DNA of 64,000 bases from a virus (IMGVR_UViG_3300035208_006521:1-64000); one strand, 5' to 3'. Counted from the first letter of the stretch, positions 38,660 through 55,192 are shown. Notes: generated by a model not told the origin, from the letters alone. A program made the numbers and translations.

Positions 38660-40042
38660 CTAAAACCAATCAAGGTTTGATGGGGATATATTGATGATCC
38701 TTACCTGTTGTTCTCTTTTCTTTAATCCCAATGCTCCAAAGAGTAACATCAAGAAGGGATAAACTGCCGCGTTTGTCGGATATAAATCGAATTTCATCAT
38801 CGGCAAGAATTGTTCCCATTCTATCGCATCATACATTGGATTCAGATTCAATGCATACACTGTTGAAGTACCCGGTAAGTATGCGTTAGTGTCGGAAACA
38901 ACCTGCGGAGAACCTGTTCTTTTCGTCTGGAAGCATTTTTTATGTCCAGTTGTTTCTCCTTTTTTGGCTCTGTAAATTACCCAACCTGTGCCTGCTGTTG
39001 AACCATCTGTGATGGTTATATCAACTTGTTCTCCCACACCTACTGCAATTTCTGAATTTGCTGAAGGTATAGATTCCCCGAATTTGTTAACAGCACATAC
39101 TATATAGCTGTATGTTCCTTCATCACCTGATCCAAACTCGGAAGATGTTCCGGATACTGCAAGGCTTATTGTTGGTGCAGAAGGCCTGGAAGCTACTATT
39201 ACAGAAGCTCTTGGTACTGCTTTTTCCTGGATGAAGATATCATCTACCAGTTTAGGCGTCCCGAATGGAGTTGGATATTCTGTGAATATTGCTCCTCCTA
39301 GAACTTCTCTTTTTGCTTCAAAACGGATTCTGTTTCTCAAAAGAGCCTGAACGTCCTTCATTACCATTAAGGAGCAATAAAGATCGGTTATTATACCGAA
39401 GTTTGCTCTGATGATTCTCGCTGCTTCCGTCATGGCTTCTTCGAATTCTGTTGTGTTGGCTGTTTTGCCTCTGAGGTCAATAACATTGACAGTGCCCTGT
39501 GAAGTCGGAGCTGCTGTAATGAGTTTATCTAATCCATCTGGCTGTTCTACTATTACATCAGAATCGCCATTGAATAGGATTTTTTCGACCTGTTTTATAA
39601 TCCAGAGTGTGCCGGCCTGTTTTTCGAGTGCAACCGCATCTTCGATCATATTTGCTATCGAAGCCTGCAAGGTAACTTTCCTCAGAGTCTGCAAATATTT
39701 CATCAAGACGAATGATCTTTCTATCGTCTGATCTTTTTCTACAGAATCACCACCTTCTGGAACCCATGCACCATCCTCGTCACCAACTTCTGTTCTCCTT
39801 ACCCACTGATGAGCAACTGATTTGACGGGCTGCTTTTTAAGTGCTTTAAAAAGCTTTGCTTCATCCTGGCTCCAGAGAACGTTGACGAGAGTTGTATCCA
39901 GGGATTCAGGCTGAAGTGCACGCCCTCCTGTGAAAGAAGCAGCATCAACACCTGTGCCTCCTTCTAAGGCTTTTAAAAGGGAATCCATCATTTCTGAATT
40001 ACCCTGGTGAAAACCTTCACTTAAGTCTTTTAAAAGGTCCAT
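38660..40042 (-). CDS. Major capsid protein (SPO1/Twort-like HK97 fold)
   Basis: LLKA-LEGGTG...GRALQPESLD N-terminus, ILFNGDS, EQPDGLDKLI; C-terminal insertion domain. Confidence 0.9.
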   Translation of the reverse strand: MDLLKDLSEGFHQGNSEMMDSLLKALEGGTGVDAASFTGGRALQPESLDTTLVNVLWSQDEAKLFKALKKQPVKSVAHQWVRRTEVGDEDGAWVPEGGDSVEKDQTIERSFVLMKYLQTLRKVTLQASIANMIEDAVALEKQAGTLWIIKQVEKILFNGDSDVIVEQPDGLDKLITAAPTSQGTVNVIDLRGKTANTTEFEEAMTEAARIIRANFGIITDLYCSLMVMKDVQALLRNRIRFEAKREVLGGAIFTEYPTPFGTPKLVDDIFIQEKAVPRASVIVASRPSAPTISLAVSGTSSEFGSGDEGTYSYIVCAVNKFGESIPSANSEIAVGVGEQVDITITDGSTAGTGWVIYRAKKGETTGHKKCFQTKRTGSPQVVSDTNAYLPGTSTVYALNLNPMYDAIEWEQFLPMMKFDLYPTNAAVYPFLMLLFGALGLKKREQQVRIINISPSNLDWF

Positions 40043-40061: not shown

Positions 40062-40772
40062 TTACATTAAAGTCATTACATCATTCGGCAGCGGAATACC
40101 TTTTTGTATTCTACTTTCGAATTTGATGGAATCTTGAATACTTATTTTCCCTTCATTTACCAATTTAGGTAATTTTGAAAGGGCTTCTGATTTGGTCAGA
40201 GATGCTCTCTCTTCTCCGCCTTCAATGGATTTTCTCATTATCTGAATTTTATCCCCTAAAAGGCTTTTCCTGGGTAGAACTGTACCCCCAATAGCTTCCA
40301 TTCTTGTGCTGATTGATTTTACCAGCTTAGCCTGGGCTACTTCCATACCTTCTTTTTTCCTTAAAGATTTTCTCAAATCTTTAATTTCTTCTGCCTGATA
40401 TACCATTGCTTTTGTCAAATCAGTTATCTGATCATCAAGCCTTCTTACCAGACTTTTTAAGAAAGGTGTCACTTCCAGAACATCAGAAGAATCCGGGTCG
40501 GAATTCAGACTGTCTTCGATGGATTTGGAAAGGGCTTCATATTCAGGCTCCCCTGATTTTTGATACTCTTCCTCTTCTTCATCATCTTCATCCTCGTCAA
40601 ATTCTTCATCATCTTCTTCGTTTTCATCTTCGTCGAAGTCTTTTTTGACAACTTTCTTTTTTTTCTTGTCAGCTTTAGAGAGGTCTTCTAAAGCCACATC
40701 CAGAGCCTTTTCCAGCTCTTCACTAGTGGCTTCTTCTAACTCTTCTCCAGCCAATTTCTTTAGTTTGTCCAT
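40062..40772 (-). CDS. Scaffolding protein
   Basis: Between protease and MCP genes; acidic tract, coiled coil, many [LFM]xK[SA] motifs. Confidence 0.75.
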   Translation of the reverse strand: MDKLKKLAGEELEEATSEELEKALDVALEDLSKADKKKKKVVKKDFDEDENEEDDEEFDEDEDDEEEEEYQKSGEPEYEALSKSIEDSLNSDPDSSDVLEVTPFLKSLVRRLDDQITDLTKAMVYQAEEIKDLRKSLRKKEGMEVAQAKLVKSISTRMEAIGGTVLPRKSLLGDKIQIMRKSIEGGEERASLTKSEALSKLPKLVNEGKISIQDSIKFESRIQKGIPLPNDVMTLM

Positions 40773-40792: not shown

Positions 40793-41563
40793 TTAGTTTT
40801 TAAAAAGAAACTTTTGAACCATTAAATTTTTTAGTGGTTTATACAAATGAGTTGCTCCTTGAAATTCAAGGTAATCCTGAAAATCATCTTCGCTTCTTAT
40901 ATCCCCGCTTTTAATTCTCATCAGAAGTTCATTTATTACGGGCTGGACTTCAACATTGTTTGCTCCCTGTAGGCTTTCAGGACTTAACGCTCTACCCCCT
41001 GTAAACATGGAAGAATCAACTCCGGAACCTAACATCAGAGCTTTAGTAAAAGCTCCAAAAGGGATAAGACTCACTTTACCCAAAGTTGATGCATTTGTCG
41101 GTTTATAAGTGACTGCTGTTTCATCCCATATAACCTGGGTTATCCCAGATAGGGCTTTATTCAATGATACCCTTTTCTTTACATAACCACCAATTGAAGC
41201 TCCTAGGCGAGATGATTGAGCTTTTAGTAATCTTACAACCGCATCTGCAAATTCTACTCCTTTGTAAAGTTTGCCTTTTACAAATGTCCTGTTTTCCTTG
41301 AAACCTACGTCCTGTGGTTCACCTATTATATACTTTGGTGACTTTTCCAATTTATGTAAATGGTCCCAAGAAATAACTCCACCCTTCAAATAATCTTCAG
41401 CCTGTTCCTGTAATGCTTTCATGAATACTATTTCCCTGGATTTATCTCTTTCCTCGTTTGAGGCTTCCAGAAATACAGTGTAAGCATCGTTGGGGTCTGA
41501 CTTAATGATGATTTGTCCCATTGGAGAATAAAAAGGGTCAAAGTTTTCTAGATTTTCTCTCAT
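40793..41563 (-). CDS. Prohead protease
   Basis: EASNEERDKSREIV, ISWDH, IIGEP, FVKGKLY, GASIGG, TAVTYKPTN. Confidence 0.85.
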   Translation of the reverse strand: MRENLENFDPFYSPMGQIIIKSDPNDAYTVFLEASNEERDKSREIVFMKALQEQAEDYLKGGVISWDHLHKLEKSPKYIIGEPQDVGFKENRTFVKGKLYKGVEFADAVVRLLKAQSSRLGASIGGYVKKRVSLNKALSGITQVIWDETAVTYKPTNASTLGKVSLIPFGAFTKALMLGSGVDSSMFTGGRALSPESLQGANNVEVQPVINELLMRIKSGDIRSEDDFQDYLEFQGATHLYKPLKNLMVQKFLFKN

Positions 41564-41865: not shown

Positions 41866-43428
41866 TTACCACTTATTCCCGTCCGGGTCGTTTCCCTTCA
41901 TCCATTTTAAACTTATCCCGTTGGCTATATCTTTCATAGTTCCAAAATCACTTGCGTCGCATTCACCTGCTTCGACATCGGTTTTATAGCCCTGGGCCAA
42001 TGCCTTCATTGTTCCTTCATCCGTCTTTTTGAAAAATACTGTGAATCCTTTTTTGTTTGTTACAAGCAAATTGTTTCCATCCACTTCTACATCTTTAAAG
42101 CCCGCTTTTTTGAATTTATCACTAATATCTGTAATGCTGGTTTTTTTATCTTTTTCAGCTTTATCTTTTTTGGCAGGCATTTTTTTCGACCTGAGTTGGC
42201 TATCAGGATATTGGGGGTTGGATATAAATTTGTCATCTTTCTTTTTGTCTTGTTGCATAAATTCACTTGCATCCATCAACATAGCATTTAACACCATATC
42301 TTTTTCTTCTTTTAAAAAGTTTTCTTCGCCGCCATAAACCATTTTCATATACTTCCCAAAACTTACATCATCCACATCCATTGAATCCGGGTCTGTAAAA
42401 ATTTCTAATAACTCTTTCCTTTTATCCTCTGTACTCATGTTGTCAGATTTTCCTTCTTCTCCCGCATCTGAATAGAATTCTTTATATTCTTTTTCTACCT
42501 TTTTATCCGACCATCCTCTTATTTTTGTCTCTTCTTCGGCCGCCGTCAATTCTTTTATGGCTTCTTTTTCATATTCTTTTAGATTTTTCGGTCTCCAGCC
42601 TGCTTTTAAGGCATTCTGGATGCTTGATCTTTCTTCTTTACTTGCTTTTCCTGCTCCCAAAAATGAAGCCAATTCAATTCCGGACATACCTGATCCTTTC
42701 TTACTTAAACCACTTCCATCAGCCCTGCCCTTACCAGGACCTGCACCTCTGCCATAAGGACCCGTTCCATCCCGTTTTTCTACGCCGAATTTTTTACTTT
42801 CTGTTTCTTTACTACCGGATGTTCTTCCTTTTTTCTCCTTGTATACATATTTATAATTGCCCTTGGTACCTTCCCTGCGGAGATATTTTGCTTTTAGCAT
42901 TTCTCCTTCTGACATATTTTTTGTTCTGATTTTTAAAGCTTTTTTTAAGCTACTCAATTTATTCTCCCAATTTATCCCTGTGCTTATACTAGTCAGTTCT
43001 ATCAATTTTAGAACTTTTGCGACACGTCCTCTCCACGCATCCTTTCCATAAGTTTCATCTAACCTATTTTTTAGATATCTCTTCCACTTATCCTCAAAAT
43101 GATTATCCACAAGATTTTTATAACCATGTCTTACATATGCTGGCAGACTTTTGAATTCTTCGGAAGCCATAACACCCTGGGCTACTTTTCTCATGGCCAT
43201 TACTTTGCTCCCAAAATCTTCTTCATATTGACGGTCACTATCACCATTCCCCTTATTTCTAGTCCCAACCCTGTTGGCGGTATTTTTTTGTTCTTTGATA
43301 TCCTCTTTTGATAAATGTTTTTCTCCCGATCCCTTATAAGTATACTTATAATGACCAGGTCCACCTTCTCTCTTGATATATTTAGCTTTTAATAATCTCT
43401 CCTCTAAAGCCTCTTTTAAGTTATTCAT
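41866..43428 (-). CDS. Tagged K/E-rich putative internal head protein (two LKAKY tags)
   Basis: RLLKAKYIKREGGPGHYKYTY and EMLKAKYLRREGTKGNYKYVY. Confidence 0.6.
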   Translation of the reverse strand: MNNLKEALEERLLKAKYIKREGGPGHYKYTYKGSGEKHLSKEDIKEQKNTANRVGTRNKGNGDSDRQYEEDFGSKVMAMRKVAQGVMASEEFKSLPAYVRHGYKNLVDNHFEDKWKRYLKNRLDETYGKDAWRGRVAKVLKLIELTSISTGINWENKLSSLKKALKIRTKNMSEGEMLKAKYLRREGTKGNYKYVYKEKKGRTSGSKETESKKFGVEKRDGTGPYGRGAGPGKGRADGSGLSKKGSGMSGIELASFLGAGKASKEERSSIQNALKAGWRPKNLKEYEKEAIKELTAAEEETKIRGWSDKKVEKEYKEFYSDAGEEGKSDNMSTEDKRKELLEIFTDPDSMDVDDVSFGKYMKMVYGGEENFLKEEKDMVLNAMLMDASEFMQQDKKKDDKFISNPQYPDSQLRSKKMPAKKDKAEKDKKTSITDISDKFKKAGFKDVEVDGNNLLVTNKKGFTVFFKKTDEGTMKALAQGYKTDVEAGECDASDFGTMKDIANGISLKWMKGNDPDGNKW

Positions 43429-43766
43429 TCTGTTTCTCCTAAATGGTTTAATTTGGCGGCTTCAACAGATTCGGAAGCCATATTGATAGTATTCTCTAAC
43501 AATGATCTATCATGTAACAACTTCATATAACTGAATTTTTTATCCTCATATTCTTCATCCATTTCTTTGCCTGAAGTATAAGGCTCTAATTCTCTTCCCT
43601 TTTTTTCTATCCTACCTTTTAATATTTTCAAATGCTTCTGGGCAGCTTCCATTATTGCTTCTTGTTCTTTTATTATCCCCCTTATATAAACTTTTCCTTT
43701 TGCATAAGCATTATTGAGTTTGTTTATATCTTTCTCTGTTATTCTTTTTGTTGATTGTAAGTTCAT
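43425..43766 (-). CDS. Hypothetical protein
   Basis: ORF track; coupled on both sides. Confidence 0.6.
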   Translation of the reverse strand: MNLQSTKRITEKDINKLNNAYAKGKVYIRGIIKEQEAIMEAAQKHLKILKGRIEKKGRELEPYTSGKEMDEEYEDKKFSYMKLLHDRSLLENTINMASESVEAAKLNHLGETE

Positions 43767-45523
43767 TTGTTTTCTTCCTTTGCAAATTTTTTATAAAATC
43801 TTATTTCACTACCCATTTTGGAATAATCATACCATTCTCCTGTATGATAATCCATTGCTTTTTTATCCCGCTTTATTTTAATTTTCGTATTTGCCAAGGG
43901 CCCGTGTTCAAATTCAATTATATCCCCCACTTTCGGATCAGAGTCGTGGAGTTTGAATATAGGTGTTTCTTTTCCGGGTTTTGCTTCCTCCGCATAAACC
44001 TGTACCCAGTCATCATTATAATCCCCAGTCTGTTGGGTATATATATTTGTCAGCTTGTCTAACCCTTTTTGTTTTATATAGCTTCTTACCCATGCTTCTG
44101 CTGATTTTTCAGACGTACTCTTGAATGTAAAAGCCATACTACCTTCTCCGGCGTCTATATAATCGGGTATATTGCTTCTTGGTACTCTATCACTATCGCC
44201 TCTTTTTTGATAGTCATCATTAGCATACTGGGAATAATCCGTCTTTTTAGATTCTTTCTTCGATTCTGTTTTAACTACTAGCTTAGGCTGTTCGATTGGT
44301 GCTGGGGTTAAATTATTTATATCCCTGTTTTCTGAATTGAATTCACCCAACTCTATAGAACCATAACCTCCACCGCCCATTACTTTAGAAGGTGGGGTTA
44401 ATTCCTTAACACTAAACCCACTTCCTCTTAAATCATTAACGATTGAATTAAATCTATCGGTTGATATACCGTGAAATCCTATCCTTTTGGGGTTATATTT
44501 ATCTATTTCATAACTATTGCCGGAAGAATGTGTCCAGCCTCTTATAGCGGTCCCCGTGACTTTAGTCACTTCCAGTCCATATTTATGAAATATATCCTTT
44601 GCGAGTTTCAGATTCAAATCTTCGTACTTCATTTTTCTCTCGAATTTTTCAAGCTCTCTCCTGGCATTTTCAAAAACTTTTAATCCTTGTTTTTTTCTTC
44701 TTGCTGGAATTTCCATATAAAATTTCCGGGCACTTTCTATTCTATCATTAAGCATTTTCCTTTGTCTTTCCCTTTCATCTTCGCCTGTCTTTTTTATCAC
44801 TAGTTTTTTTTCTTTTGGTTTTTGTATGTCGCCTGCAGCCGGTACTCCAATCTGGGGTGTTGCTTGATAATTACTTATATATTCCCTTGCCTTTACATAC
44901 TGGGTTCCTTCAGGTCCTAGCATTATCTCTTTTGCTTTTTCTACTCCCATTTCTTTCACATATTCATGGAAATTTTCTTTCGCTTTTTTGACTGCTTCTA
45001 TTTCCCTCTGACTGAGTGACTTTTTTTCAGCTAATTCATCGATTTTACTTTGGTAATATTCAACTCTTTCCCATGCATGTTTTTTATTATCTTCTGTTTC
45101 CCCGGTATCATTTGCTATGTTCCTGAAATGTTCTTTCTTTTCTTCCCATGGTTTTATCTGTTCATCGAAAGAAAGTTCTTTTGACGCTAAATTTGCTTCA
45201 GTCCATCCTGCAAGCCATTCTTTCATCATCCCTGCGGAGCTACTTCCTACTTTTTTACCTTTTATCTGTTCCATCAAATCATAATCTCTGGCAGGAATTG
45301 CCATTTTTCCTTCCTTAAATGCTTTTCTACCCATTTCCCTGGCTTGCTGGGTTGATATATTCTTTGTTGTACCCTGTTCCTTCTTGTCACTACCGGTTTT
45401 CGCTTTTTGTCCTGCTTTACCGACATATTTCCATCCAGTGGCAGTTTTCTGATATTTTCTACCACTATATTCTTTTATTGTTCCGTTGGGTACTGCTTTT
45501 GCTTTTAATAATATGAGTCTCAT
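43763..45523 (-). CDS. Tagged multidomain putative internal head protein
   Basis: N-terminal MRLILLKAKAVPNGTIKEYSGRKYQKTATGW. Confidence 0.6.
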   Translation of the reverse strand: MRLILLKAKAVPNGTIKEYSGRKYQKTATGWKYVGKAGQKAKTGSDKKEQGTTKNISTQQAREMGRKAFKEGKMAIPARDYDLMEQIKGKKVGSSSAGMMKEWLAGWTEANLASKELSFDEQIKPWEEKKEHFRNIANDTGETEDNKKHAWERVEYYQSKIDELAEKKSLSQREIEAVKKAKENFHEYVKEMGVEKAKEIMLGPEGTQYVKAREYISNYQATPQIGVPAAGDIQKPKEKKLVIKKTGEDERERQRKMLNDRIESARKFYMEIPARRKKQGLKVFENARRELEKFERKMKYEDLNLKLAKDIFHKYGLEVTKVTGTAIRGWTHSSGNSYEIDKYNPKRIGFHGISTDRFNSIVNDLRGSGFSVKELTPPSKVMGGGGYGSIELGEFNSENRDINNLTPAPIEQPKLVVKTESKKESKKTDYSQYANDDYQKRGDSDRVPRSNIPDYIDAGEGSMAFTFKSTSEKSAEAWVRSYIKQKGLDKLTNIYTQQTGDYNDDWVQVYAEEAKPGKETPIFKLHDSDPKVGDIIEFEHGPLANTKIKIKRDKKAMDYHTGEWYDYSKMGSEIRFYKKFAKEENK

Positions 45524-45584
45524 GTTTTCCTCACATAAATTTTCTTATCCTGCTACTACATCCAATTCTTCTCAAAAAATTCTT

Positions 45585-45887
45585 TCAAATTTTTTGCTTC
45601 ACCTTTTCCGGGTTTTTACTCTTTGTTGCAGCCTTCTTTTTTCTATCTGACAATATCTTATTTGCTTTATATTCATTCTGGAACATCTTCGCTTCCTGTT
45701 TTACTTTTGCTGAGGGTTTATAGGTCTTTGTTTTGCTTTTTGCTTTGCTTTTTCTTCCGCTAGGAACAAACACCCAACCATTCTTTGTTTTTTTGTACTT
45801 CTTACCGCTGTAAGTTTTCACCGTACCAATGGCAAGTTTTTCGGCTTTCATAAGCCTGTCAAGTAAAGCTTCTTTCAAATTGTTCAT
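45585..45887 (-). CDS. Tag-only basic protein
   Basis: MNNLKEALLDRLMKAEKLAIGTVKTYSGKKYKKTKNGW plus a Lys-rich tail. Confidence 0.6.
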   Translation of the reverse strand: MNNLKEALLDRLMKAEKLAIGTVKTYSGKKYKKTKNGWVFVPSGRKSKAKSKTKTYKPSAKVKQEAKMFQNEYKANKILSDRKKKAATKSKNPEKVKQKI

Positions 45888-46156
45888 TTTATTTCTCCTT
45901 TTTTTATTACAAGTTTTGTTTCTTTTAATAATCTCCTAGGATTATCTTTTACTACTTCTATCAACTTATTACTTCCGTTATCAAACTTACACTCTACCAC
46001 TGCTTCTATATCGCCCCCTGAAGCAAATCCTGCAAAGTATTTACAATCTCTGCAATTGTTATCATAGAATTCTACACCCCATTCAACCAGCTCATTATTC
46101 TTTCTACAATATATCCTACCCATAGAATCCGGTATCATTTGAAATGTTGTTTTCAT
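45884..46156 (-). CDS. Hypothetical Cys-containing protein
   Basis: ORF track; CRDCKY; C-terminal KLVIKK. Confidence 0.55.
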   Translation of the reverse strand: MKTTFQMIPDSMGRIYCRKNNELVEWGVEFYDNNCRDCKYFAGFASGGDIEAVVECKFDNGSNKLIEVVKDNPRRLLKETKLVIKKGEIK

Positions 46157-46202
46157 TTTCTTTCCCCTATATTATATCCCTTTTGTTAAATTGTAAACCT
46201 TT

Positions 46203-47879
46203 TTATTTATTCAACCATTCATTATCTATTTCTTGAACTTTATCCCTGGTTCTTTCTATATCTATCCACAACATCGGCAATACTGCTTTTGGATTTTTGA
46301 CACAAAATTCATCATTAAGTAATCTGCCTTGTCCTTTTTTTGCATATACTGTATCGTGCCCATTTGGAAGGTTATGATCGGAATATTTAACATTGCCCAT
46401 GGCTGCTTTGCATACAAACATTACTCCCCTGTCATCACTTCTGCCATAATCCCCTGCATATTGGATCGACTTAGAGCTTACATCCGTCAAATATATACCA
46501 TCTCCCAACATTCTACCTGTTCTGGCTTTTCTTAATTCAAAACCCCCTTTTGCTATCTTTGATGCATTCTCGAAAGTTGTAGCATGGTATCCTATCTTCA
46601 CATTACCTTTTTCTTTTTCTATTGACTTCCATTTTTCATAATAACCGGCTTCTTCTATCTTGTATATACCTTTTATTCTAAAACCAAATCCTCCATGCTG
46701 TGTCTTGTCAAAACTATTTTTTAGATATTCGAGTACTCTCTGACATCTACCTCTATCAAGGCTTCTCAATGCTATTTTCTGGGAGTATTCTCTACCTTCC
46801 CTTGAAAGTTTCTTTCTTATTGCTTTCTGTGAAGCTTCAGACATACCCCCAATTCTTTTATCCATTATCATTTTTTCCATAACCGAATTTGTATATGAAG
46901 GTGATCTATTAGCCATAGTCATAATATCATAAACTTCTTTTGAGGTTAGTAATGGAGTTTGTTGTTTTTTTTCTTTGTTTGCTTTACTATAAAGTGTTGA
47001 ATTTAATTTAAAAGTACTATACAGAGCGGCCAATTTGTTGGCCGCATCCTTATCCATATTTTTGCCTTTTTCTCTATTCTTCCTCCATTTCTTCGTAAAA
47101 TTTCTAAATTCCCTTTCCGAGTTTAACGCCTCATTTCCCATTTCATTGGCCTTTCTTTGCCATTCTGCTTCTTCTGGAGTTGGGTTTTCTCTTATTAGTT
47201 TATGTTCATCTTTCGCTTTTTCCCTTTTTTCTGTCCATTCTTTATAAAGAATGTCATCACCTTTCATTCTTGCTTCATTCTGTTCTGCGGCCAATGTTTC
47301 TATTCTCTCATAAAATTCATCACCCCTTCGACTTGCATTTTTTTCATATTCACTTTTCTTTTCATAGACTTCTTTTAAATTTTCTGCACGCCCTGTAAAA
47401 CCTCTTTTAAAATCTTCATCTAAACCATCAAAAATATCAATTCTATCTTTATAATTTTTCAACCAACTATCAACAGCTCCCCATATAACCATAAAACTAC
47501 TCATTTTTTTGAGATTGAATCTCTCAAAATCCAAAGAACATTCCCTAACCGCTCTTTTTATATATTTGGGGGCTTCCTGAGAAGGTTCAAATATATGCAA
47601 TTGATCTGATACATATTCCTCGGCTTTTCTATCGAGACATTTTATACCCGTGGTTTCCATTATTTCTTTTGCTTTGGGCGAGAGTTCTTTTGTTGTCTTA
47701 TCCATTGCTGGCTTAGTTGCAACGTTTGTTTGTATTGCTGTTATATCTTTGGTCACTTGCTTATCACCTTTGCCATGAAACTTCCAGCCATTGGCTGTCT
47801 TGATATAATCTCTGCCACTATATGTCTTTATTGTTCCAATTGGCACTGCTTTTGCTTTTAATAATATGGCCAATTTCAT
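46203..47879 (-). CDS. Tagged protein with a C-terminal PARP-like ADP-ribosyltransferase (H-Y-E) domain
   Basis: GYHATT, GRMLGDGIYLTD..SKSIQY, GVMFVCKAAMG, NDEFCV; N-terminal MKLAILLKAKAVPIGT tag. Confidence 0.85.
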   Translation of the reverse strand: MKLAILLKAKAVPIGTIKTYSGRDYIKTANGWKFHGKGDKQVTKDITAIQTNVATKPAMDKTTKELSPKAKEIMETTGIKCLDRKAEEYVSDQLHIFEPSQEAPKYIKRAVRECSLDFERFNLKKMSSFMVIWGAVDSWLKNYKDRIDIFDGLDEDFKRGFTGRAENLKEVYEKKSEYEKNASRRGDEFYERIETLAAEQNEARMKGDDILYKEWTEKREKAKDEHKLIRENPTPEEAEWQRKANEMGNEALNSEREFRNFTKKWRKNREKGKNMDKDAANKLAALYSTFKLNSTLYSKANKEKKQQTPLLTSKEVYDIMTMANRSPSYTNSVMEKMIMDKRIGGMSEASQKAIRKKLSREGREYSQKIALRSLDRGRCQRVLEYLKNSFDKTQHGGFGFRIKGIYKIEEAGYYEKWKSIEKEKGNVKIGYHATTFENASKIAKGGFELRKARTGRMLGDGIYLTDVSSKSIQYAGDYGRSDDRGVMFVCKAAMGNVKYSDHNLPNGHDTVYAKKGQGRLLNDEFCVKNPKAVLPMLWIDIERTRDKVQEIDNEWLNK

Positions 47880-47880
47880 T

Positions 47881-48558
47881 CTATAACTCCTTCAAATATT
47901 TTTCCGGGTAATGATCTAGCGGATTGCCTACTATCTTCAACCATGGGAGCAATAATAATTCCCAACCAAAAGTTGCTCCTAGTCTTAATGTCTTGCTTAT
48001 ATGCATAAAACCCATCCATAATGTTGGGACTTTTGTTACCATGTCTTCTTTATATACAAATCTTCTGGAAATTATTCTTCTTCTCCTAAAATCTCTTACA
48101 AATGATCTATTACCCACTCTTGGAGAACCAAAAGTGATACAGATCACTTCCTTGCCCCCTGCAGTTATCATGGAATAGAAATAAGCATGAAGAACCGCAA
48201 GGGCTGCCCCTAAACTATGGCCCGTAAAGATAACACTTTCTTTACCCCTTTTGATTATTTTTTCGAATACTTCTATTTTTGAAACTTGATACTGTCTAAA
48301 AAAACCTTCATGAACTTTTATCCTTTTTTCGGTTGTTCTTATCTTCTTGAAATTCAAATTATCATACCAATCAAGCTTGCCATGAGAGCCCTGGAAGACA
48401 ACTACTGTATGTTTTCCGTAATCTCCTATCATGTATTCTGTGTGTCCTATTTTACAAACTTCAACATTTTCCATAACTTCTTTGACTTTTCCATGATGGC
48501 CGTTATAAGAATTTACGCATGCCTGGCACATATTCCTTATTGTCATTGCTGTTAACAT
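47881..48558 (-). CDS. Class 3 lipase / alpha-beta hydrolase
   Basis: VVFQGS, VHEGFF, FTGHSLGAALA, ITFGSPRVGN, DMVTKVP, DH. Confidence 0.9.
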   Translation of the reverse strand: MLTAMTIRNMCQACVNSYNGHHGKVKEVMENVEVCKIGHTEYMIGDYGKHTVVVFQGSHGKLDWYDNLNFKKIRTTEKRIKVHEGFFRQYQVSKIEVFEKIIKRGKESVIFTGHSLGAALAVLHAYFYSMITAGGKEVICITFGSPRVGNRSFVRDFRRRRIISRRFVYKEDMVTKVPTLWMGFMHISKTLRLGATFGWELLLLPWLKIVGNPLDHYPEKYLKEL

Positions 48559-48595
48559 AAGCTTTTTCTCCTTTTAAACTATAGTTTTTTACAAT

Positions 48596-48628
48596 TTTAC
48601 GTTGCACGTACCAATGCACGCCAGCTGT
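48596..48628 (-). repeat. 33-bp GC-rich element, copy 2 (inverted relative to 13929-13961)
   Basis: Reverse complement is acagctggcgtgcattggtacgtgcaacgtaaa. Confidence 0.95.
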
Positions 48629-48632
48629 GTTT

Positions 48633-49592
48633 CTACATCTTTAATATCTTTATTAGCTTTGAAATTGTTGTTTTAGCATCAGAATGTTTTACACCAACAC
48701 CCCCTGCATGCTCCCATTTTTTGAGATTTTTATCCATATCATCAATCAGTATATTCCCATTGCCTGCATATTTCTCTTTATTGTGATCTATTATAATTTC
48801 TATTCCTTTACCTATGTTTTTATGTATCCAGAATTTTTTATCTTCCTTATAATCTTTTACTTGGGCTGTTGATGTTAATATCTTCACTATATACCCTTTG
48901 TTCTTTAATTCTGCTAAATAACCCCATAACTTCAATGCATCTTTTTTTCTGGGCATACTACGCCACCAATGAGGTTTCGATTTTATTCTTGCAAAGATAT
49001 CATCAGAGTTTTTATCATCATCAGGATGTATCCCAAAAGATGATATATAATGAGCATCAAAATCAGATAATACCCCATCACAATCACAATATATTTTCGG
49101 TTTAATTATATCCGATTTTATAAATAATCTCATACCCGACTTTTTTAACCTCTTCTCAAAATCTACACCTTTTACAACTACATCATGGATATATTTACCA
49201 TCTTTTATAACTATCTCTTCTTCCATATTTTCAAATTCATTATTTCTGTCTAGAGTATCTTCAAAGGATATACCTTCTTTGCCTATAGTTGCTGAAATAA
49301 CCACTCCATCTTCTCCGGCAAAATCATCAGCTATTGAAAAATTAGTAGTCCAGCTTATACCTGGATTATTAACATCTATATCTGTATCTTTTGAACCTCT
49401 ATATATTTTAAGTGGAAATTTTAAGTTATCCACAAAATCATTACCTGTATTTTTAAAACTTTCTGTTTCGTTGGAAGTTTTTGTTTTGGCATTATTTATT
49501 CTTCTCCACTTCCCTTCAGAAACTTTTTTATACTTGCCATGAATAGTTCCTACTGGTACTTTTCTTGCTTTTATCATGACTACTAGTTTCAT
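48633..49592 (-). CDS. Tagged fusion: ART-like (R-S-E) domain + HAD 5'(3')-deoxyribonucleotidase
   Basis: KIYRG...GISWTT...EEEIV; then IYCDCDGVLSDF, ILTS, ILIDD...W..AGG.G. Confidence 0.7.
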   Translation of the reverse strand: MKLVVMIKARKVPVGTIHGKYKKVSEGKWRRINNAKTKTSNETESFKNTGNDFVDNLKFPLKIYRGSKDTDIDVNNPGISWTTNFSIADDFAGEDGVVISATIGKEGISFEDTLDRNNEFENMEEEIVIKDGKYIHDVVVKGVDFEKRLKKSGMRLFIKSDIIKPKIYCDCDGVLSDFDAHYISSFGIHPDDDKNSDDIFARIKSKPHWWRSMPRKKDALKLWGYLAELKNKGYIVKILTSTAQVKDYKEDKKFWIHKNIGKGIEIIIDHNKEKYAGNGNILIDDMDKNLKKWEHAGGVGVKHSDAKTTISKLIKILKM

Positions 49593-49593
49593 A

Positions 49594-49842
49594 TTATGCT
49601 ACCTTTAACTTTCTTCCATTTAATTTGCCTTCTTTCTTTGCTAATTTTTCCATTGCTATCAGCCAATCATAATAATCTGGAATCTCATCCAAATGGTCTT
49701 TAGCAATCAATTCAGCTTCAGCATCATCGCTTGTGTGTTCTCTTTCAATCTTTATACCAAGCTTTAATTGTCTGGGGTCGTATTTCTTTTCCATTTTTAT
49801 TCTCCTATATAAATTAAGCAAGAAATAATTCACTACCTTCAC
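49594..49842 (-). CDS. DUF5661-like small protein
   Basis: QLKLGIKIEREHT...IAKDHLDEIPDYYD.L. Confidence 0.7.
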   Translation of the reverse strand: MKVVNYFLLNLYRRIKMEKKYDPRQLKLGIKIEREHTSDDAEAELIAKDHLDEIPDYYDWLIAMEKLAKKEGKLNGRKLKVA

Positions 49843-50272
49843 TTCTTGCCATTGGGTGCTTATTTGCTTCTGTTGTCTCTTCTATCTCTTTCATTTTGTC
49901 TTCTATTTCTTTCGAACTTCTTTTCTTAGTTTTATTTCCAAGCCACTTTTCTCTTTTTTCTTCAAGTTCTTCTTCTACTTTTGATGTATCTTTATCAGGC
50001 CTGCTATCCAATCCATCTTTTAACCTTTTGCTCCTTTCAATTGGTGGCTGGTATGTACCTTTTATTATTCTTTCCAGACCTATGAACTCTCTGGGTAATT
50101 CACTAAACATAAATTCTTCTTGTGTCTTTATTAAATCACCCATTCTCATTGCAATGGCTTTTTGTATTGCTACACCTCTACCTTTCTTTTCGCTTTCTAT
50201 TGAGTTCAATATCCTTGCCAATCCAGTTTCATCATGGGCTGCTATATCATCTATACTGCCAAGGATATTCAT
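49814..50272 (-). CDS. Paralog of the C-terminal segment of the 1358-aa protein
   Basis: MNILG...HDETGLARILNSIESEK vs MDILG...HDETGLLGILNSIEKEK. Confidence 0.65.
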   Translation of the reverse strand: MNILGSIDDIAAHDETGLARILNSIESEKKGRGVAIQKAIAMRMGDLIKTQEEFMFSELPREFIGLERIIKGTYQPPIERSKRLKDGLDSRPDKDTSKVEEELEEKREKWLGNKTKKRSSKEIEDKMKEIEETTEANKHPMARSEGSELFLA

Positions 50273-50330
50273 TTCTTTTTCTTTTCGGTTTAATTATATC
50301 CGATTTTCTTAATCTAATTATTAACTTCAT
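50247..50330 (-). CDS. 27-aa tag-bearing mini-ORF, out of frame with the 49814 ORF
   Basis: MKLIIRLRKSDIIKPKRKRNEYPWQYR; ATG overlaps the upstream TAA (TAATG). Confidence 0.5.
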   Translation of the reverse strand: MKLIIRLRKSDIIKPKRKRNEYPWQYR

Positions 50331-50779
50331 TATGCTGTCATTCTCTTATCTGGGTAATGTCTTTCCATCGTGCTTACGAATCTACTATAAACTGCCCTTG
50401 CCATTTGTTTGTCCGGCATGTTCAGATTTACTAACTTTTTAACATAATTATATGCGTCATCATGTGAAGCACCTGCCACTTTTTTCTTTCTGAAAACTTT
50501 AAACATTAAATCTTCATGGGCTGAATACTCTCTATCTACTGTTTTGTTTTCCCCTGTCTTACCTGTTACTCCTATTTCAGCCCCCTTTCTTTCAGGCTTT
50601 TCATCAGCCGAGCCTTTCTTGCTTCCAACGGGCTCTTTGTATATGTATTTGTTACCCTCCTTTCTTATATATTTAGCTTTTAGAAGACTTTCCCTTAAAT
50701 CTTTTCTCATTGCTTTCTCAAGACTTTCAGTCCAGTTGATTCTTTCACATAATGCTTTTTCCAACTTATTCATATCCAA
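50330..50779 (-). CDS. Tagged putative internal head protein
   Basis: LEKAL, LEKAM, SLLKAKYIRKEGNKYIY. Confidence 0.6.
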   Translation of the reverse strand: MDMNKLEKALCERINWTESLEKAMRKDLRESLLKAKYIRKEGNKYIYKEPVGSKKGSADEKPERKGAEIGVTGKTGENKTVDREYSAHEDLMFKVFRKKKVAGASHDDAYNYVKKLVNLNMPDKQMARAVYSRFVSTMERHYPDKRMTA

Positions 50780-50803
50780 TCTCCTTTTTTCATTTTTTGC
50801 TTC

Positions 50804-51103
50804 CTATTTTCTGACAACTAACTTCTTATATTCTTTAACGCCTTTTTTGTAAAGCTCTTTTTCTTCCGGGGCTATTTCTAATAAAAGTCCTTGTAATTCC
50901 CCAACATGCACTACTTCTTCATCCGAAATAGACTTAAGTGTTTTCTTTGCCTTATCATTACTTATTGATTCAGCCAATTGCATGTATAGTTGTATAGCTT
51001 CATACTCCGCGGCTATTGCAAATCTTATTGCTCTTATTGTCTCTTCTTTTGTGAGCTTTCTATCTGCTTTCATACCTGAGAATGGGTTTTCAAATTTTGG
51101 CAT
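50804..51103 (-). CDS. Ferritin-like / rubrerythrin-like protein
   Basis: RAIRFAIAAEYEAIQLY...DEEVVHVGE di-iron motif (E..E..Y / EE..H). Confidence 0.85.
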   Translation of the reverse strand: MPKFENPFSGMKADRKLTKEETIRAIRFAIAAEYEAIQLYMQLAESISNDKAKKTLKSISDEEVVHVGELQGLLLEIAPEEKELYKKGVKEYKKLVVRK

Positions 51104-51115
51104 ATTATTTCTCCT

Positions 51116-54100
51116 TTATATCATTACTCTTTCTTTTAAATCTTCCGATCTTCCATCTATTTCTCTCATGTGTCTTTCCATACAATCAGGGCACATTCTA
51201 CCAACCACACTCTGTGCATCATAATTTTCAAATCTCTCTGGAATATCATTCACCCATTTATCATCCTCCCTATATTTTTTGCATACTCTACATTGATATA
51301 ATACTTCTCTTCCACTTTCAAGTTCTTTCTTCTTAATGTGTGGAGTTGTATCCAGATTATCTTCCAATTCCATTGCATTCTTTTTTGTTACATCTTTTGC
51401 TTTTTGAAATGGTGATTCCTTATATATTGATCTATCTTCCCAAATGGCTTTTTCCAGTGATTGTAATAATGATTCGGCTGCGGATATTTCATCAACTTTT
51501 CTACCCAATCTTTCCAGCGCTATTGTTAGTGCCTTTTTCATTGCTTTACCTGGTGCCCCTTTTTCCTTTTCTATTGAATTTAATATCCCGAGCAAACCTG
51601 TTTCATCATGCCCTTCTATTTCTCTTGGGTTACCTAGTATATCCATTTCCCTTTCCTTTCTATCTAGGATATCCCTTTTACTCATATCAAAGGGAGAATT
51701 ACTTTCCAAAACATAAGTTGCTACATCCTTATTTTGACCCTTTCTAAATATTCTTTTATTCCTTTGGTCAAATGATGCAAAGGTGGGTGGAATATCATAA
51801 TGAAATGTTACTGTACCCCCAAACTGAAGATTATGCCCAGCTTCTAGAGACTTGGTTCCTATTATGAATCTTACTTTTGATTCTGGGTTATTAAATTCAG
51901 CTTTTGCCGAGTCAGCTTCTTTTTTCGCTGTGTCGCCATTTATGGCTACAACACTACCTTTTCCATATTTGGCTTCCAGGGTTGTTTTAATCGTATCCAT
52001 TGCTTTTCTACCCTGTAAATGTATGACCGCTTTTTCTCCTTTATGATCATTTTCCATTATATCAAGTATTTTCTGAGCTTTGGAATTATTTTGTGGGTCC
52101 CCATTATGGAGTATTTGATAATTTCTCGCGTCTCTTCTACTTGCTGCCCCTATTTTTTCTCCTTCATTTGCCCTTTCCTGGGCATATTTGGCTTCCGATT
52201 CTTTATATGCTTTTCTTTGTGCTTTTGTTAAATCTACTTTTATCCTCTTTATGTTATTTTTCACCGGCAATTGAGTCCTCTGTGAATATACCCATTGACC
52301 TATTTCTCTCCTAAACGCGTCATTTGCACCTTCCTGCACTGCTGTTGTACCTTGATTTAATCCTTCATATCTTCTTTCAAAATCTTTCATACTACCGAGT
52401 GTATGATTTGGGTCCACAAAATCTATTTTCTTCCACAATTCCCTTTTTGAATTTTTTATGTTTGTTCCTGTCATTGCTATCTTATAAGGGATTATTTTAC
52501 CCAATGATTGTAATCCTTTCATTCTACCCGAGGATTCATCGCTTGCATAATTTGGATTTGTTAACTCATGAGCTTCATCTACTACCATCATATCAAAGCC
52601 AGCTTTTTCCAATAGTTCTTTATCTGTTCTTAATTGGTCATGACCTATGATTATTATTCCATCTTTTTTATAATTTTGCTCTCTTTGTTTTGGTCCCTTA
52701 TCATTTAAAGTCACAAGTTTTTGTCTATCCGGTGTTAAAAACTTCTCCCTTTCCTGAAAGAATTGGCTTCTTAATTTTGCAGGTGTTACTACTAAACATT
52801 TTTTAGCCCCTTTATTATTCATTGCTTCCAGACAGGCTGCATATCCTAGTGGAGTTTTACCTATACCTGCTTCAAAATCTAATACTGCTTTACCCGTTTC
52901 TTTAAAGAATCTCAAACCAGCTTCCTGGGAAGCATCTAGCTTTATTTTACTTTGCATACCCTCTGGTTTATATCCATCATTCATTTTATGGGCTTTTATC
53001 TTTTCTATTATATTTTCTTTCTCCCTCGCCTTGACATTTGTATTAAAGAATTTACCTAGACTATCTTTTGGTATTTCCATTACTATTCTTTTATCTTTAG
53101 TTTTCAAAGAATAATCATCCCTACCAAGTCCCATTATTCTCGCTTTCTTTCTAGCTTCAAATAAATCATGACCCATATCTACCTGGACGGAATCTACCGG
53201 TCCTTCTTCCAATGCATTTATTAAGTGAGCTGTTGCTCTTAAACTACCTACTGCTGAACCTAAATTCTTTTGGCCAGCTACGAGTTGTCTCAATGCATAC
53301 CCATTAGCCGAAGCTTTAGAAAGTATTGCTTCTACGTCATCACTATCTTCGGCTAATTTTCTTATCTCATCCGCATTTGCAAATCTTTCCTCGGATTCTT
53401 TTAATGCTTTATCAACTACCTTCATATTATTTTCTTTTGCAAATCTGTGAAGGGCTTCTTTCACTTCCTCTGTTCTACCATCAGCATGTATTTTAGCTGC
53501 CACTATCCTGGAACAAGATTCTATTCCCATCGTTTGAATAACATCTTGATTAAATATTCCTTTTACCTTGAATATATCACCACCTACTCCATTTAGTGTT
53601 GCTAAACCACCTTCATCTATATGCTTTTGGGCTGCTAATCCTTGTGCATTCAACTTCTCATACAATTGCACGTTCTTTTGTGTTTCAACGTGTTGCTTTA
53701 CTTCTTTAACTATATCATCATCAATGCTACTTGAATCTTCCGCAAATGTTGTACCTATTTTAATCTCTGGTTCTTCTCCAATTCTACCCCTGGTAATATC
53801 TTTTAACTTTTGACGAAATTCTCTCCTTGCTTTTAATATTTCTTTTGCCTTTTCCACGTTCAAAAGGTCCTGCATATTTTGTTTCTTATCTGGTGGTATT
53901 TCATCTCCAAAATAATCTGTTGCTAGTGCGTTTAATGCCCTTGATTCTAATTGCTTTATCTTTTTTTCTTCCATTCTTACCCTGGCGGCTTCTTCTTCTT
54001 TTTTATATTCTTCGGGTTTTTCTTCCATCAACTTGGCTATTTTTTCTTCACCTACTTTATTCTTTTTGGCCATTCTTTTCTTCGCAACTTCACTTATCTC

Positions 54101-55192
54101 TTCCAGGTCTTTGGTTGTTAATATCGTTTTGTATTCCTCGCCCATTATCGTTTTCACTTTTTCTTCATAGGAGGCTCTTTCTCCTTTCTTGGCTTCTATC
54201 TCTTCCTTCTTCAGCTTGGTTTGTTCTTTTCTTTCTTCTGGGGTTATGTCCTTTAGCTTGGCTTCTTTCTTCTCCTTGAGTTGCTTTCTATACTCATCTT
54301 CTGGTAACAATTTATCGATCTTGAAGTGGTTTAATTTACCGCCTGCACCTCCTACTACCACATAACCTCCTTCTTCTACCCCTTGCACCAATACGTGTTG
54401 TCCCCTTACTGTCACCCATCTCAATCCCTTTCCTTTGAGGTCTTCTTTTTTATAATGCTCTTTGTCTGACTTCCTCATCTCCATATCCGGGCCGGATATC
54501 TTACCCTTCTTGCTCTTTACCTTGCTCTTGAAGTCATCTATCTTGAACTCTTCCATACTACCAAAGAATTTTTCTGGGTTGTCATAATGATCACAATATG
54601 CTTTCTTCGCTTCTTTATCATTATTAAATCCCAACATCACTTTATCTTCATCGTATTTCCCTGTTAGTGGATTATTCTGATGTATTACATATACCCTTTT
54701 ACTTTCTTCATCTTCTCCTATGAAGCAATCTACGCAATCTCCGTCAGCCCCTTCCGTTAGTCTTATGTACCCATATGGTATTTTCATCTTTGTTTTCCAT
54801 TCGTTACCATCTGGGTCTTTTCCTCTTCTTATACTGCCAGGTTTATTTTCTATACTTATATCCATGCCCTGGAATTTTCTTTTACCTTGTAATTTGTAGT
54901 TTGCCTTTTCCATATTCTCAAAATGATTTTTTAACAGGTAATAATTCTCTATGGAAAATTCTCGCACATCCAAGTCCTCAACACCAGGGCACAAAAAAGA
55001 GAGCTCAACGGCTTTTTTCATAAGACCTAAATCTACCGTTGAGCTTTTATTCATACCGCTATATATACTGTTTACTAACTTCCAGAAGCTTTCATCTTCT
55101 TCCGTATAATTTGGATACTGCCTATGTACTATCTTTTTGGCTTTATCCCACTTCTTTTCGTCTTGCTTATCTTTTACTAATCCTTTTGGCAT
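51116..55192 (-). CDS. Large polyvalent protein: small N-terminal domain + inorganic-pyrophosphatase-like domain + SNF2/SWI2 ATPase (DarB-like)
   Basis: ISIEN..GS.R.G.D..G..W...M..PYGYI..T.GADGD.VD.FIG...DEDKVMLGF; SNF2 motifs DFEAGIGKT, VVDEAH, MTGT, GHNLQ, QRNKRIFR.GQ. Confidence 0.85.
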   Translation of the reverse strand: MPKGLVKDKQDEKKWDKAKKIVHRQYPNYTEEDESFWKLVNSIYSGMNKSSTVDLGLMKKAVELSFLCPGVEDLDVREFSIENYYLLKNHFENMEKANYKLQGKRKFQGMDISIENKPGSIRRGKDPDGNEWKTKMKIPYGYIRLTEGADGDCVDCFIGEDEESKRVYVIHQNNPLTGKYDEDKVMLGFNNDKEAKKAYCDHYDNPEKFFGSMEEFKIDDFKSKVKSKKGKISGPDMEMRKSDKEHYKKEDLKGKGLRWVTVRGQHVLVQGVEEGGYVVVGGAGGKLNHFKIDKLLPEDEYRKQLKEKKEAKLKDITPEERKEQTKLKKEEIEAKKGERASYEEKVKTIMGEEYKTILTTKDLEEISEVAKKRMAKKNKVGEEKIAKLMEEKPEEYKKEEEAARVRMEEKKIKQLESRALNALATDYFGDEIPPDKKQNMQDLLNVEKAKEILKARREFRQKLKDITRGRIGEEPEIKIGTTFAEDSSSIDDDIVKEVKQHVETQKNVQLYEKLNAQGLAAQKHIDEGGLATLNGVGGDIFKVKGIFNQDVIQTMGIESCSRIVAAKIHADGRTEEVKEALHRFAKENNMKVVDKALKESEERFANADEIRKLAEDSDDVEAILSKASANGYALRQLVAGQKNLGSAVGSLRATAHLINALEEGPVDSVQVDMGHDLFEARKKARIMGLGRDDYSLKTKDKRIVMEIPKDSLGKFFNTNVKAREKENIIEKIKAHKMNDGYKPEGMQSKIKLDASQEAGLRFFKETGKAVLDFEAGIGKTPLGYAACLEAMNNKGAKKCLVVTPAKLRSQFFQEREKFLTPDRQKLVTLNDKGPKQREQNYKKDGIIIIGHDQLRTDKELLEKAGFDMMVVDEAHELTNPNYASDESSGRMKGLQSLGKIIPYKIAMTGTNIKNSKRELWKKIDFVDPNHTLGSMKDFERRYEGLNQGTTAVQEGANDAFRREIGQWVYSQRTQLPVKNNIKRIKVDLTKAQRKAYKESEAKYAQERANEGEKIGAASRRDARNYQILHNGDPQNNSKAQKILDIMENDHKGEKAVIHLQGRKAMDTIKTTLEAKYGKGSVVAINGDTAKKEADSAKAEFNNPESKVRFIIGTKSLEAGHNLQFGGTVTFHYDIPPTFASFDQRNKRIFRKGQNKDVATYVLESNSPFDMSKRDILDRKEREMDILGNPREIEGHDETGLLGILNSIEKEKGAPGKAMKKALTIALERLGRKVDEISAAESLLQSLEKAIWEDRSIYKESPFQKAKDVTKKNAMELEDNLDTTPHIKKKELESGREVLYQCRVCKKYREDDKWVNDIPERFENYDAQSVVGRMCPDCMERHMREIDGRSEDLKERVMI

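Follow-up and report, generated by a model that had tools for sequence, protein, structure and literature searches.

A 13-kb block of the virus record IMGVR_UViG_3300035208_006521 (positions 41,866 to 55,192 of a window comprising the first 64,000 nucleotides) encodes six proteins that together carry seven copies of one short cassette, a leader followed by a small basic hairpin. The cassette recurs in 258 protein clusters at the start of otherwise unrelated modules, its copies are confined to clusters of structural genes, and its junction carries the motif at which the major capsid protein (MCP) of the same phage is predicted to be cut. We favour, at slightly better than an even chance, the reading that the tagged products are capsid cargo which the prohead protease trims or cuts apart, with the hairpin most likely holding each module to DNA. 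Genes are named below by their lower coordinate (Table 1), and arrows in motifs mark predicted cuts.

Tag cassettes of the block

Regular expressions and profile scans of all open reading frames (ORFs) placed tags of type A at the N-termini of 43763, 45585, 46203 and 48633, and tags of type B on 41866 (residues 1-37 and 166-208) and on 50330. The leaders are 7 to 35 residues long, and no further ORF of the genome matched the tag profiles. Pairwise BLAST linked 43763 to 46203 (E 1.7e-11), 45585 to both of these (E 6e-9 and E 1.7e-9, respectively), and 50330 to both copies on 41866 (E 6.7e-8). A preliminary description of this DNA had listed the same tag positions, together with an exact identity of 24 bp between 45492-45515 and 47845-47868, which we also recovered; the two tags concerned are identical at 83 of 114 DNA positions, and 43763 and 46203 are alike over about 290 residues, beyond the tag, as partial paralogues.

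The same description distinguished two tag types, and the alignments do not bear out their independence. In both types the leader closes with LLK-A-K (or with LMK-A, MIK-A or MLK-A), and BLAST gives 41% identity between the leader of 45585 (type A) and that of 41866 (type B). After the junction, type A continues as AVP-I-G-T-I-K-x-Y-S-G-x-x-Y-x-K-T-x-x-G-W and type B as Y-I-K-R-E-G-x-x-G-x-Y-K-Y, which aligns with strands two and three of type A and looks like type A without its first strand. Read in this way, A and B are two forms of one cassette, composed of a phage-specific leader and a basic mini-domain. An AlphaFold2 (AF2) model of the type A tag of 46203, made with 35 aligned natural sequences, placed strands at residues 17-20, 23-28 and 31-34 (pLDDT 81, core >90), so that the mini-domain is modelled as a three-stranded antiparallel sheet. 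All tagged products are basic, with isoelectric points (pI) of 9.2-10.4, and the MCP and scaffold are acidic. No tag matched any Pfam family at E<=10, the LPD families included. Signal and lipoprotein peptides were considered as explanations and ruled out by the absence of a hydrophobic core or lipobox and by the internal occurrence of the tags.

The bodies behind the tags had been described as unrelated, and this holds overall, with the partial paralogy of 43763 and 46203 as the exception. Of the individual assignments, the PARP domain of 46203, the 5'-deoxynucleotidase of 48633 and the lack of a body on 45585 were borne out. The ADP-ribosyltransferase (ART) domain also claimed for 48633 was based on an R/S/E pattern seen by eye and was not backed by Pfam, by PHROGs, by BLAST against an ART-PolyVal protein, by homologue searching or by fold; an AF2 model of residues 1-165 made without an alignment was unusable (pLDDT 29). 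Homologue searches with residues 41-165 of 48633 and residues 1-215 of 41866 returned the query itself only, and a search of the ESM Atlas with the bodies of 43763 and 41866 gave nothing usable. The distant gene taken for a B-tagged sigma factor carries only a loose B-like motif, and its sigma identity comes from one NCBIfam match of 18 bits; it had no Pfam, PHROG or PDB match, and its BLAST similarity to 41866 (E 3e-5) was obtained without composition correction. Near the C-terminus of its product we noted the motif QPFFKS.

The junction motif and the predicted capsid protein cut site

The MCP is about 30% identical to the MCPs of SPO1-like, Twort-like and Touem01-like myoviruses, and its N-terminus aligns without gaps with a staphylococcal phage MCP that is represented by PDB chains 5lii_P (463 aa) and 9row_B (439 aa). 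In alignment coordinates, 9row_B starts at S25 after DVVK24, where the present MCP reads SLLK24↓A25; taking the 439-aa chain as the mature protein, the present MCP would be cut at SLLK24↓A25. A lysine and a small residue are kept at this position in SPO1 Gp6.1 (LNK↓A), in Touem01 (LQK↓S) and in the MCPs of the related loci L002 and L015 (LSK↓A), and HK97 gp5 is likewise cut after a lysine, its mature form beginning S-L-G-S. No direct published statement of the N-terminal cut site of Herelleviridae-type MCPs was found; a paper on Felix O1 was set aside as a source because it concerns a different MCP.

The motif is concentrated among the head genes, with L[LM]KA occurring eight times in the head module (7.1 k residues) against 0.42 expected, a count reached in 0 of 2000 shuffles; the remaining 18.6 k residues hold two. 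The less stringent hhK[AS] was found 16 times against 5.0 expected. Outside the tags, the MCP carries the motif close to its N-terminus, as do the MuF-like protein (ELLK↓S) and the protein encoded after the MCP (KLIK↓A), and internal copies are found in the protease and the scaffold. In 20 viral loci from IMG/VR, a hydrophobic-x-K precedes a small residue in all 50-odd tags, and the hairpin follows directly after the K↓[AGS] junction with a spacing fixed at 3-5 residues. Since the maturation motif of the MCP is present on every tag, a link to the prohead protease is plausible.

Two side observations concern the protease and its possible targets. When the protease was compared with the HK97-type (S78) prohead serine proteases, WDH and GASIGGY motifs were seen by eye only. 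Its residues 174-198 are 72% identical over 25 aa (BLAST) to MCP residues 24-48, sharing GxGVDxxxFTGGRALxPESL and starting at the predicted cut; this copy of an MCP segment may provide a route of co-assembly into the procapsid. A motif K-L-V-[VI]-[KR] recurs at residues 240 and 414 of 43763, at the ends of 45884 and 50804 and at residue 34 of the putative sigma factor; it fits the hydrophobic-x-K cut pattern (compare VVK↓S of the staphylococcal MCP), and additional processing sites may lie there.

The tag family in other phages

A profile built from the four type A sequences was searched against 1.84 billion cluster representatives (50% identity) and matched 258 protein clusters at E<=1e-3, 24 of them at E<=1e-10. 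Among the best 150 of the 258, the first copy begins within 30 residues of the N-terminus in 87, and 87 have two to four copies spaced 58-1406 residues apart; proteins carry one to four copies, and no copy begins in the last tenth of a protein. The tags thus stand at the start of modules. Across the family the tryptophan is invariant, two glycines and one lysine are conserved at 92-97%, and the lysine before the small residue at 86%. The domains joined to type A tags include ART-PolyVal, RadC, DUF5661, InPase, SNF2, UvrD and LPD1, and further SAM lyase, NUDIX, DUF3293, topoisomerase I, Kinase-PolyVal, Zeta toxin, RelA_SpoT, PBECR1 and ddrB-ParB, a set that, judged by these domain matches, corresponds to the repertoire of the polyvalent proteins.

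Type B is rarer than type A and behaves in the same way. In protein P0155 it follows an HPNCRC motif and precedes ART-PolyVal, then recurs after a GNAT domain and before a second ART; the HPNCRC motif was read by eye as a MuF-type end, and Pfam gives no MuF domain there. In P0129 type B likewise precedes ART-PolyVal. The gene boundaries between DUF5661 and tag and between lipase and tag in the present block match fusion junctions elsewhere, with DUF5661 followed by a type A tag in one chain in L017 (14918-15733) and in P0008.

Of the 20 IMG/VR loci with the tag, 18 have a homologue of the present portal, 13 one of the MuF-like gene and three one of the MCP, and arrays of two to seven adjacent tagged genes follow the portal and MuF genes and precede the MCP gene. 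All copies fall inside one stretch of 3-7 kb in each of five whole viral records of 75-119 kb. Leaders are alike within a genome, with the lysine equally far from the start (26, 26 and 26 in L015; 24, 24 and 27 in L002; 25-27 in L018 and L020, where leaders have a common DFFKS motif), and they differ between genomes. In L018 (1465-6825) and L020 (3948-5273) we also saw a longer common leader, MKQPF(L/I)xDxDFFKS...G.L.K↓AK, with a second hydrophobic-K↓S site. Elsewhere, in L014 (8801-12322) and L015 (3101-3487), a junction GEGSRGG-x-(I/V)IGHT-x-SG-x-PIY follows a K/S-small residue site and has the look of a third form of the hairpin within these gene arrays.

A strict DNA pattern for the tag found 12 copies in GTDB genomes, mostly on contigs binned with metagenome-assembled genomes (MAGs) of gut Treponema, and the strict type B pattern had no match in genome contigs. 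The tagged gene (600-885 aa) lies there among homologues of the head and neck genes of the present phage or, in an alternative setting, after a protein that matches both the MuF-like gene and the InPase protein. Contigs of 50-230 kb (L023-L034) binned with MAGs of gut Treponema, Lachnospiraceae, Acutalibacteraceae and Bacilli combine close homologues of the present structural genes (up to E 3.5e-88) with the tag. These bins are a hint of the host range of the phage group, and the binning may be wrong.

Proposed function and alternative explanations

We propose that the 13-kb block would encode the internal head proteins of an approximately 81-kb myovirus-like phage and would represent a polyvalent protein in disaggregated form. 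The cassette consists of a short leader, of phage-specific length and sequence, ending in [LIVF]-x-K↓[A/G/S], and, after the predicted cut, of a conserved and very basic mini-domain of about 30 residues, modelled as a three-stranded sheet in type A and a shorter hairpin form in type B. Cargo would enter the procapsid at assembly, the leader acting like the propeptide of the T4 capsid-targeting sequences (CTS). The protease would then remove the leader and, in fusions of module with module or with MuF or InPase parts, would cut the polyprotein into modules, each of which would keep the basic hairpin at its new N-terminus. Held by the hairpin to the packaged DNA or another polyanion, the module would exit with the genome at infection. 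The modules themselves would be early takeover and counter-defence enzymes, here a PARP-type ART, a nucleotidase and SNF2/InPase. The binding of the hairpin to DNA is the weakest step of this scheme and one of pure inference; we favour DNA as the simplest ligand that all capsids would have in common, because the hairpin is kept across phages with unlike scaffolds and at fusion junctions that need no address. A broader version, in which [LIVF]-x-K↓[AGS] plus a basic hairpin would be a general cut-and-carry code, with the prohead protease freeing modules and the retained hairpin riding the genome to co-ejection, is one that we put forward only tentatively and think more doubtful than probable.

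The preliminary description had envisaged reusable address tags, analogous to the T4 sequences, for the loading and protease activation of an injected arsenal. Its claim of reuse is upheld by the profile survey, where a wide range of effector domains of other phages stand behind these tags, and the tagged genes do lie between the portal gene and the protease, scaffold and MCP genes. The T4 analogy fits the short leader, which could be the removable part, and fails for the hairpin, which follows the predicted cut and so would remain on the mature module instead of being a removable address of the T4 kind. An address can also not be the only or necessary role, given that the hairpin occurs inside portal/MuF-linked fusions that need none. 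Of protease-activated loading, the connection with the protease is plausible through the MCP motif, and the loading itself is something we infer.

Several observations weigh against the cargo reading. Leaders as short as seven residues may be too short to target anything, and tagging is not obligatory, the lipase, DUF5661, 45884, 49814 and 1358-aa proteins of the block being untagged. The cut site is transferred from one deposited chain, whose start could reflect modelling or the construct. The prohead protease had no Pfam match even at E<=5 and no PDB sequence match, and fold searches with the hairpin model (Foldseek against the PDB and a wide VIA search) returned nothing significant. Finally, tblastn of the A-tagged P0044 against phages and plasmids and of the B-tagged P0156 against phages found no match; the search covered 50,697 deposited phage genomes, and with short queries and the low-complexity filter on it is weak evidence of absence. 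On that weak evidence the family, which is large and absent from Pfam, may be restricted to uncultured diversity.

The alternatives differ mainly in what they ask of the hairpin. It could itself be an address that docks on a part of the procapsid (the inner surface of the MCP, the scaffold, the portal or the protease), the K↓A junction being incidental or serving leader trimming. The hairpin is indeed the part of the cassette that is conserved across very different phages, and its ability to occur without a body is evident from the tag-only protein 45585. There are precedents in the N-terminal regions of phiKZ gp93 and gp162, which bind the inner capsid surface and are proteolytically separated from their bodies (PMC11297242), and in P1 DarA-Hdf, which binds the capsid interior (PMC12810830). 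The top row of both fold searches was moreover a phiKZ capsid chain (8y6v_I, 34 residues), although this match is at chance level (E 0.69; Z 2.3). We nevertheless consider a pure address rather unlikely, as conservation of the hairpin is just as strong at the internal junctions of proteins that have MuF-type or InPase parts and need no address of their own, and, for a ligand common to phages with differing leaders, scaffolds and MCPs, DNA or the protease is an easier candidate than a capsid surface specific to one lineage. The protease is the ligand in a second alternative, where the hairpin is an exosite and the cassette a cut signal that makes polyproteins of polyvalent proteins, with no role after cleavage. 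The invariable position of the hairpin right after K↓[AGS], its recurrence at every module boundary of fused proteins and the lack of any peptidase family, zincin-like metallopeptidases included, in Pfam scans of the block proteins would suit this idea. However, the MCP, the MuF-like protein and the scaffold carry the K↓[AS] motif without a hairpin, which argues that the protease does not require one, and split genes with seven-residue leaders would gain little from being cut; we judge the exosite improbable.

Two further explanations dispense with packaging. If the tags were generic nucleic-acid-binding modules on late, unpackaged cytoplasmic enzymes, their clustering would simply reflect late timing, and the basic, aromatic character of the mini-sheets and the loose B-like motif on a putative sigma factor encoded well away from the head genes could be cited in favour. 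We give this very little credence: one structural-gene cluster holds all copies in the five whole records, tags are fused to a MuF-type end (by eye) and neighbour MuF-like and InPase homologues, the MCP maturation motif occurs in them far beyond chance, and takeover enzymes made late would serve no purpose if they were not carried over to the next cell. That the common N-termini are functionless leftovers of recent duplication or gene conversion agrees with the similarity of 43763 and 46203 and with their 24-bp identical stretch, but it is already contradicted by the retention of the cassette in 258 distant clusters, on unrelated bodies and with invariant W and G positions, and we regard it as having almost no chance of being correct.

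Relation to known systems

The CTS of the T4 internal proteins IPI-III and Alt were reportedly described by Mullaney and Black in 1996. The T4 CTS is a cleavable N-terminal propeptide common to otherwise unrelated head-internal proteins (PMC9026906). As in T4, the present leaders are short, putative propeptides that end at a prohead protease motif, an ADP-ribosyltransferase is found among the basic proteins of the predicted cargo, and the system would evolve by joining the leader to new bodies. The motif is different, with [LIVF]-x-K↓[AGS] here and L/I-x-E↓ in T4, and the present protease belongs to a different, unassigned family. The conserved hairpin after the predicted cut and the internal copies in fused multi-enzyme proteins are features of the present cassette only.

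Polyvalent proteins are, according to Iyer, Burroughs, Anand, de Souza and Aravind (2017, PMC5512222), encoded near late virion genes and predicted to be packaged and injected, with zincin-like metallopeptidases proposed for their processing. The present system shares with them InPase, SNF2, ART, lipase-type hydrolases, DUF5661, NUDIX, RelA_SpoT, PBECR, ddrB-ParB and LPD1 as well as the late virion position, the block lying between the portal and MuF-like genes and the protease, scaffold and MCP genes. Its 1358-aa protein, with two disparate domains (InPase and SNF2) in one chain, is a typical member, and 48633 is a less clear case; the other tagged genes are single-module, so that the block as a whole is the split form. 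It differs in that modules are mostly separate genes and in that the cassette at the junctions suggests processing by the prohead protease, not by a metallopeptidase of the kind put forward in PMC5512222. The consulted sections of that paper hold no A or B mini-domains that we could find.

The P1 Dar system (DarA, Hdf, DarB, Ulx and DdrA/B) consists of head-internal anti-defence proteins loaded at assembly (PMC12810830, PMC9024508), and DarA-Hdf touches the capsid as well as the DNA, with which it departs (PMC12810830). Head-internal anti-defence proteins are predicted here as well, but loading in P1 is hierarchical via DarA, with no shared tag. Pfam and PHROG scans found no DarA or Hdf homologues, the sole link being the match of the InPase region to a DarB-like PHROG. 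In the giant phages SPN3US and phiKZ, whose ejection proteins have propeptides, the prohead protease acts on many head-internal proteins at one common motif, and N-terminal parts are separated from the bodies (PMC10052503, PMC11297242). The motif of these phages, A/S/G-x-E, differs from the present one. Their protease family is T4-like, and they are not known to share a hairpin domain. The type A tag also resembles a WW domain, by eye and in the AF2 model, in being a three-stranded antiparallel sheet of about 30 residues and in its L-P-x-G...G-x-x-Y...W pattern. This is a resemblance only, as the tag has a threonine for the first WW tryptophan and conserves the second alone; no WW match (PF00397) was obtained in Pfam at E<=10, nor any significant structural match.

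The concept of a cleavable leader comes from T4, and it had been predicted that polyvalent proteins are packaged and lie close to virion genes (PMC5512222); the novelty lies in the specific cassette, in how widely it occurs and in its link to the MCP cut site. Injected phage proteins, the first actors against host defences, are known for a handful of model phages only. If the cargo reading is correct, a cassette readable from sequence would allow injected effectors to be catalogued across metagenomes (PARP-type ART, SAM lyase, NUDIX, kinases and toxins), and under the broader cut-and-carry version these might include a sigma-like factor delivered by the virion. The processing of polyvalent proteins would pass to the prohead protease from a dedicated metallopeptidase, and the hairpin would serve as a transferable handle by which foreign proteins could be loaded into capsids.

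Genome and gene content of the late region

The phage contig measures 81,412 bp and has overlapping ends, and nearly all of its genes are on the minus strand. The ends (1-1909 and 79836-81377) share 24 encoded residues, so that the assembly is circular or terminally redundant, and the genome is probably complete. In the direction of transcription the late genes run from large terminase, portal and MuF-like protein through about 8 kb of small genes to the 1358-aa protein, the block, protease, scaffold and MCP (Table 1). A locus search with the protease alone retrieved no relatives, and blastn of the block against phages gave no match.

Table 1. Coordinates of the tagged genes, their neighbours and other features
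Feature	Coordinates	Strand	Evidence and remarks
Putative sigma gene	14055-15701	-	NCBIfam RpoD, 18 bits, E 1e-3, residues 322-413
N-terminus of putative sigma factor: loose B-like motif SKYKRRWMEGGKYHYDY, then KKLVVK	15573..15701	-	27% identity in alignment
178-aa protein a little downstream of MCP	36710-37246	-	N-terminus KLIK↓ALAS, then WGIRKWHGEKVG stretch, weakly hairpin-like, profile E 0.12
MCP	38660..40042	-	PHROG major head protein E 1e-63; predicted cut at about nt 39968-39973
Scaffolding protein, acidic	40062..40772	-	PHROG head scaffolding protein E 3e-6; pI 4.6, D/E run
Prohead protease	40793..41563	-	PHROG head maturation protease E 5.9e-17
520-aa protein, two type B cassettes	41866..43428	-	Cassettes at 43300-43428 and 42799-42933; body low-confidence
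113-aa protein without clear tag	43425..43766	-	Degenerate AYAK↓GKVYIRG stretch (by eye)
586-aa protein, type A tag	43763..45523	-	Tag at 45398-45523; N-half paralogous to 46203
100-aa tag-only protein	45585..45887	-	Long leader, type A hairpin, Lys-rich tail; pI 10.4
90-aa Cys-containing protein, untagged	45884..46156	-	C-terminus TKLVIKK
558-aa protein, type A tag and C-terminal PARP-type ADP-ribosyltransferase	46203..47879	-	Pfam PARP E 2.2e-19, residues 380-525
Type A tag of 46203: MKLAILLK↓AKAVPIGTIKTYSGRDYIKTANGWKF	47751..47879	-	
Class-3 lipase, untagged	47881..48558	-	Pfam Lipase_3 E 1.1e-24; PHROG esterase/lipase; gene ends 1 nt before 46203 tag
319-aa protein: short-form type A tag, N-domain, 5'-deoxynucleotidase	48633..49592	-	PHROG 5'-3' deoxyribonucleotidase E 4e-28; Pfam NT5C E 1.9e-4
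Type A (short form) tag of 48633: MKLVVMIK↓ARKVPVGTIHGKYKKVSEGKW	49473..49592	-	
DUF5661 protein	49594..49842	-	Pfam E 4.8e-12; gene ends 1 nt before 48633 tag
152-aa module	49814..50272	-	BLAST to residues 1183-1296 of 1358-aa protein: 35% over 120 aa, E 8.6e-10
149-aa protein, type B cassette	50330..50779	-	Leader, then ESLLK↓AKYIRKEG..KYIYK
Type B tag of 50330 (residues 21-60)	50600..50719	-	Self-built B profile E 2.5e-22; BLAST to both 41866 tags E 6.7e-8
Rubrerythrin/EncFtn-like protein, 99 aa	50804..51103	-	Pfam Rubrerythrin E 1.3e-5, EncFtn-like E 1.4e-3; C-terminus KKLVVRK
1358-aa polyvalent-type protein	51116..55192	-	InPase, residues 93-226, Pfam E 7.6e-47; SNF2, residues ~755-1152, SNF2-rel_dom E 3e-19
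Acb2/Tad1 hairpin-domain protein, 69 aa	55214-55423	-	Pfam E 6e-18; within the ~8 kb of small genes
MuF-like protein	63737-64789		L018 homologue has weak Phage_Mu_F match
Portal	64799-66340		Pfam Phage_portal
Large terminase	66412-68274		

The InPase part of the 1358-aa protein matches PHROGs annotated as minor head protein, virion structural protein and DarB-like antirestriction. The protein carries neither an A nor a B tag, and its InPase domain is followed by a different element, K↓GKG with a hairpin-like stretch. The 152-aa protein 49814 is a free-standing copy of a C-terminal segment of this chain and shows that modules shift between fused and split forms inside one genome. On its upstream side the 1358-aa gene adjoins the Acb2/Tad1-like gene, whose product is likely a sponge for cyclic-nucleotide defence signals.

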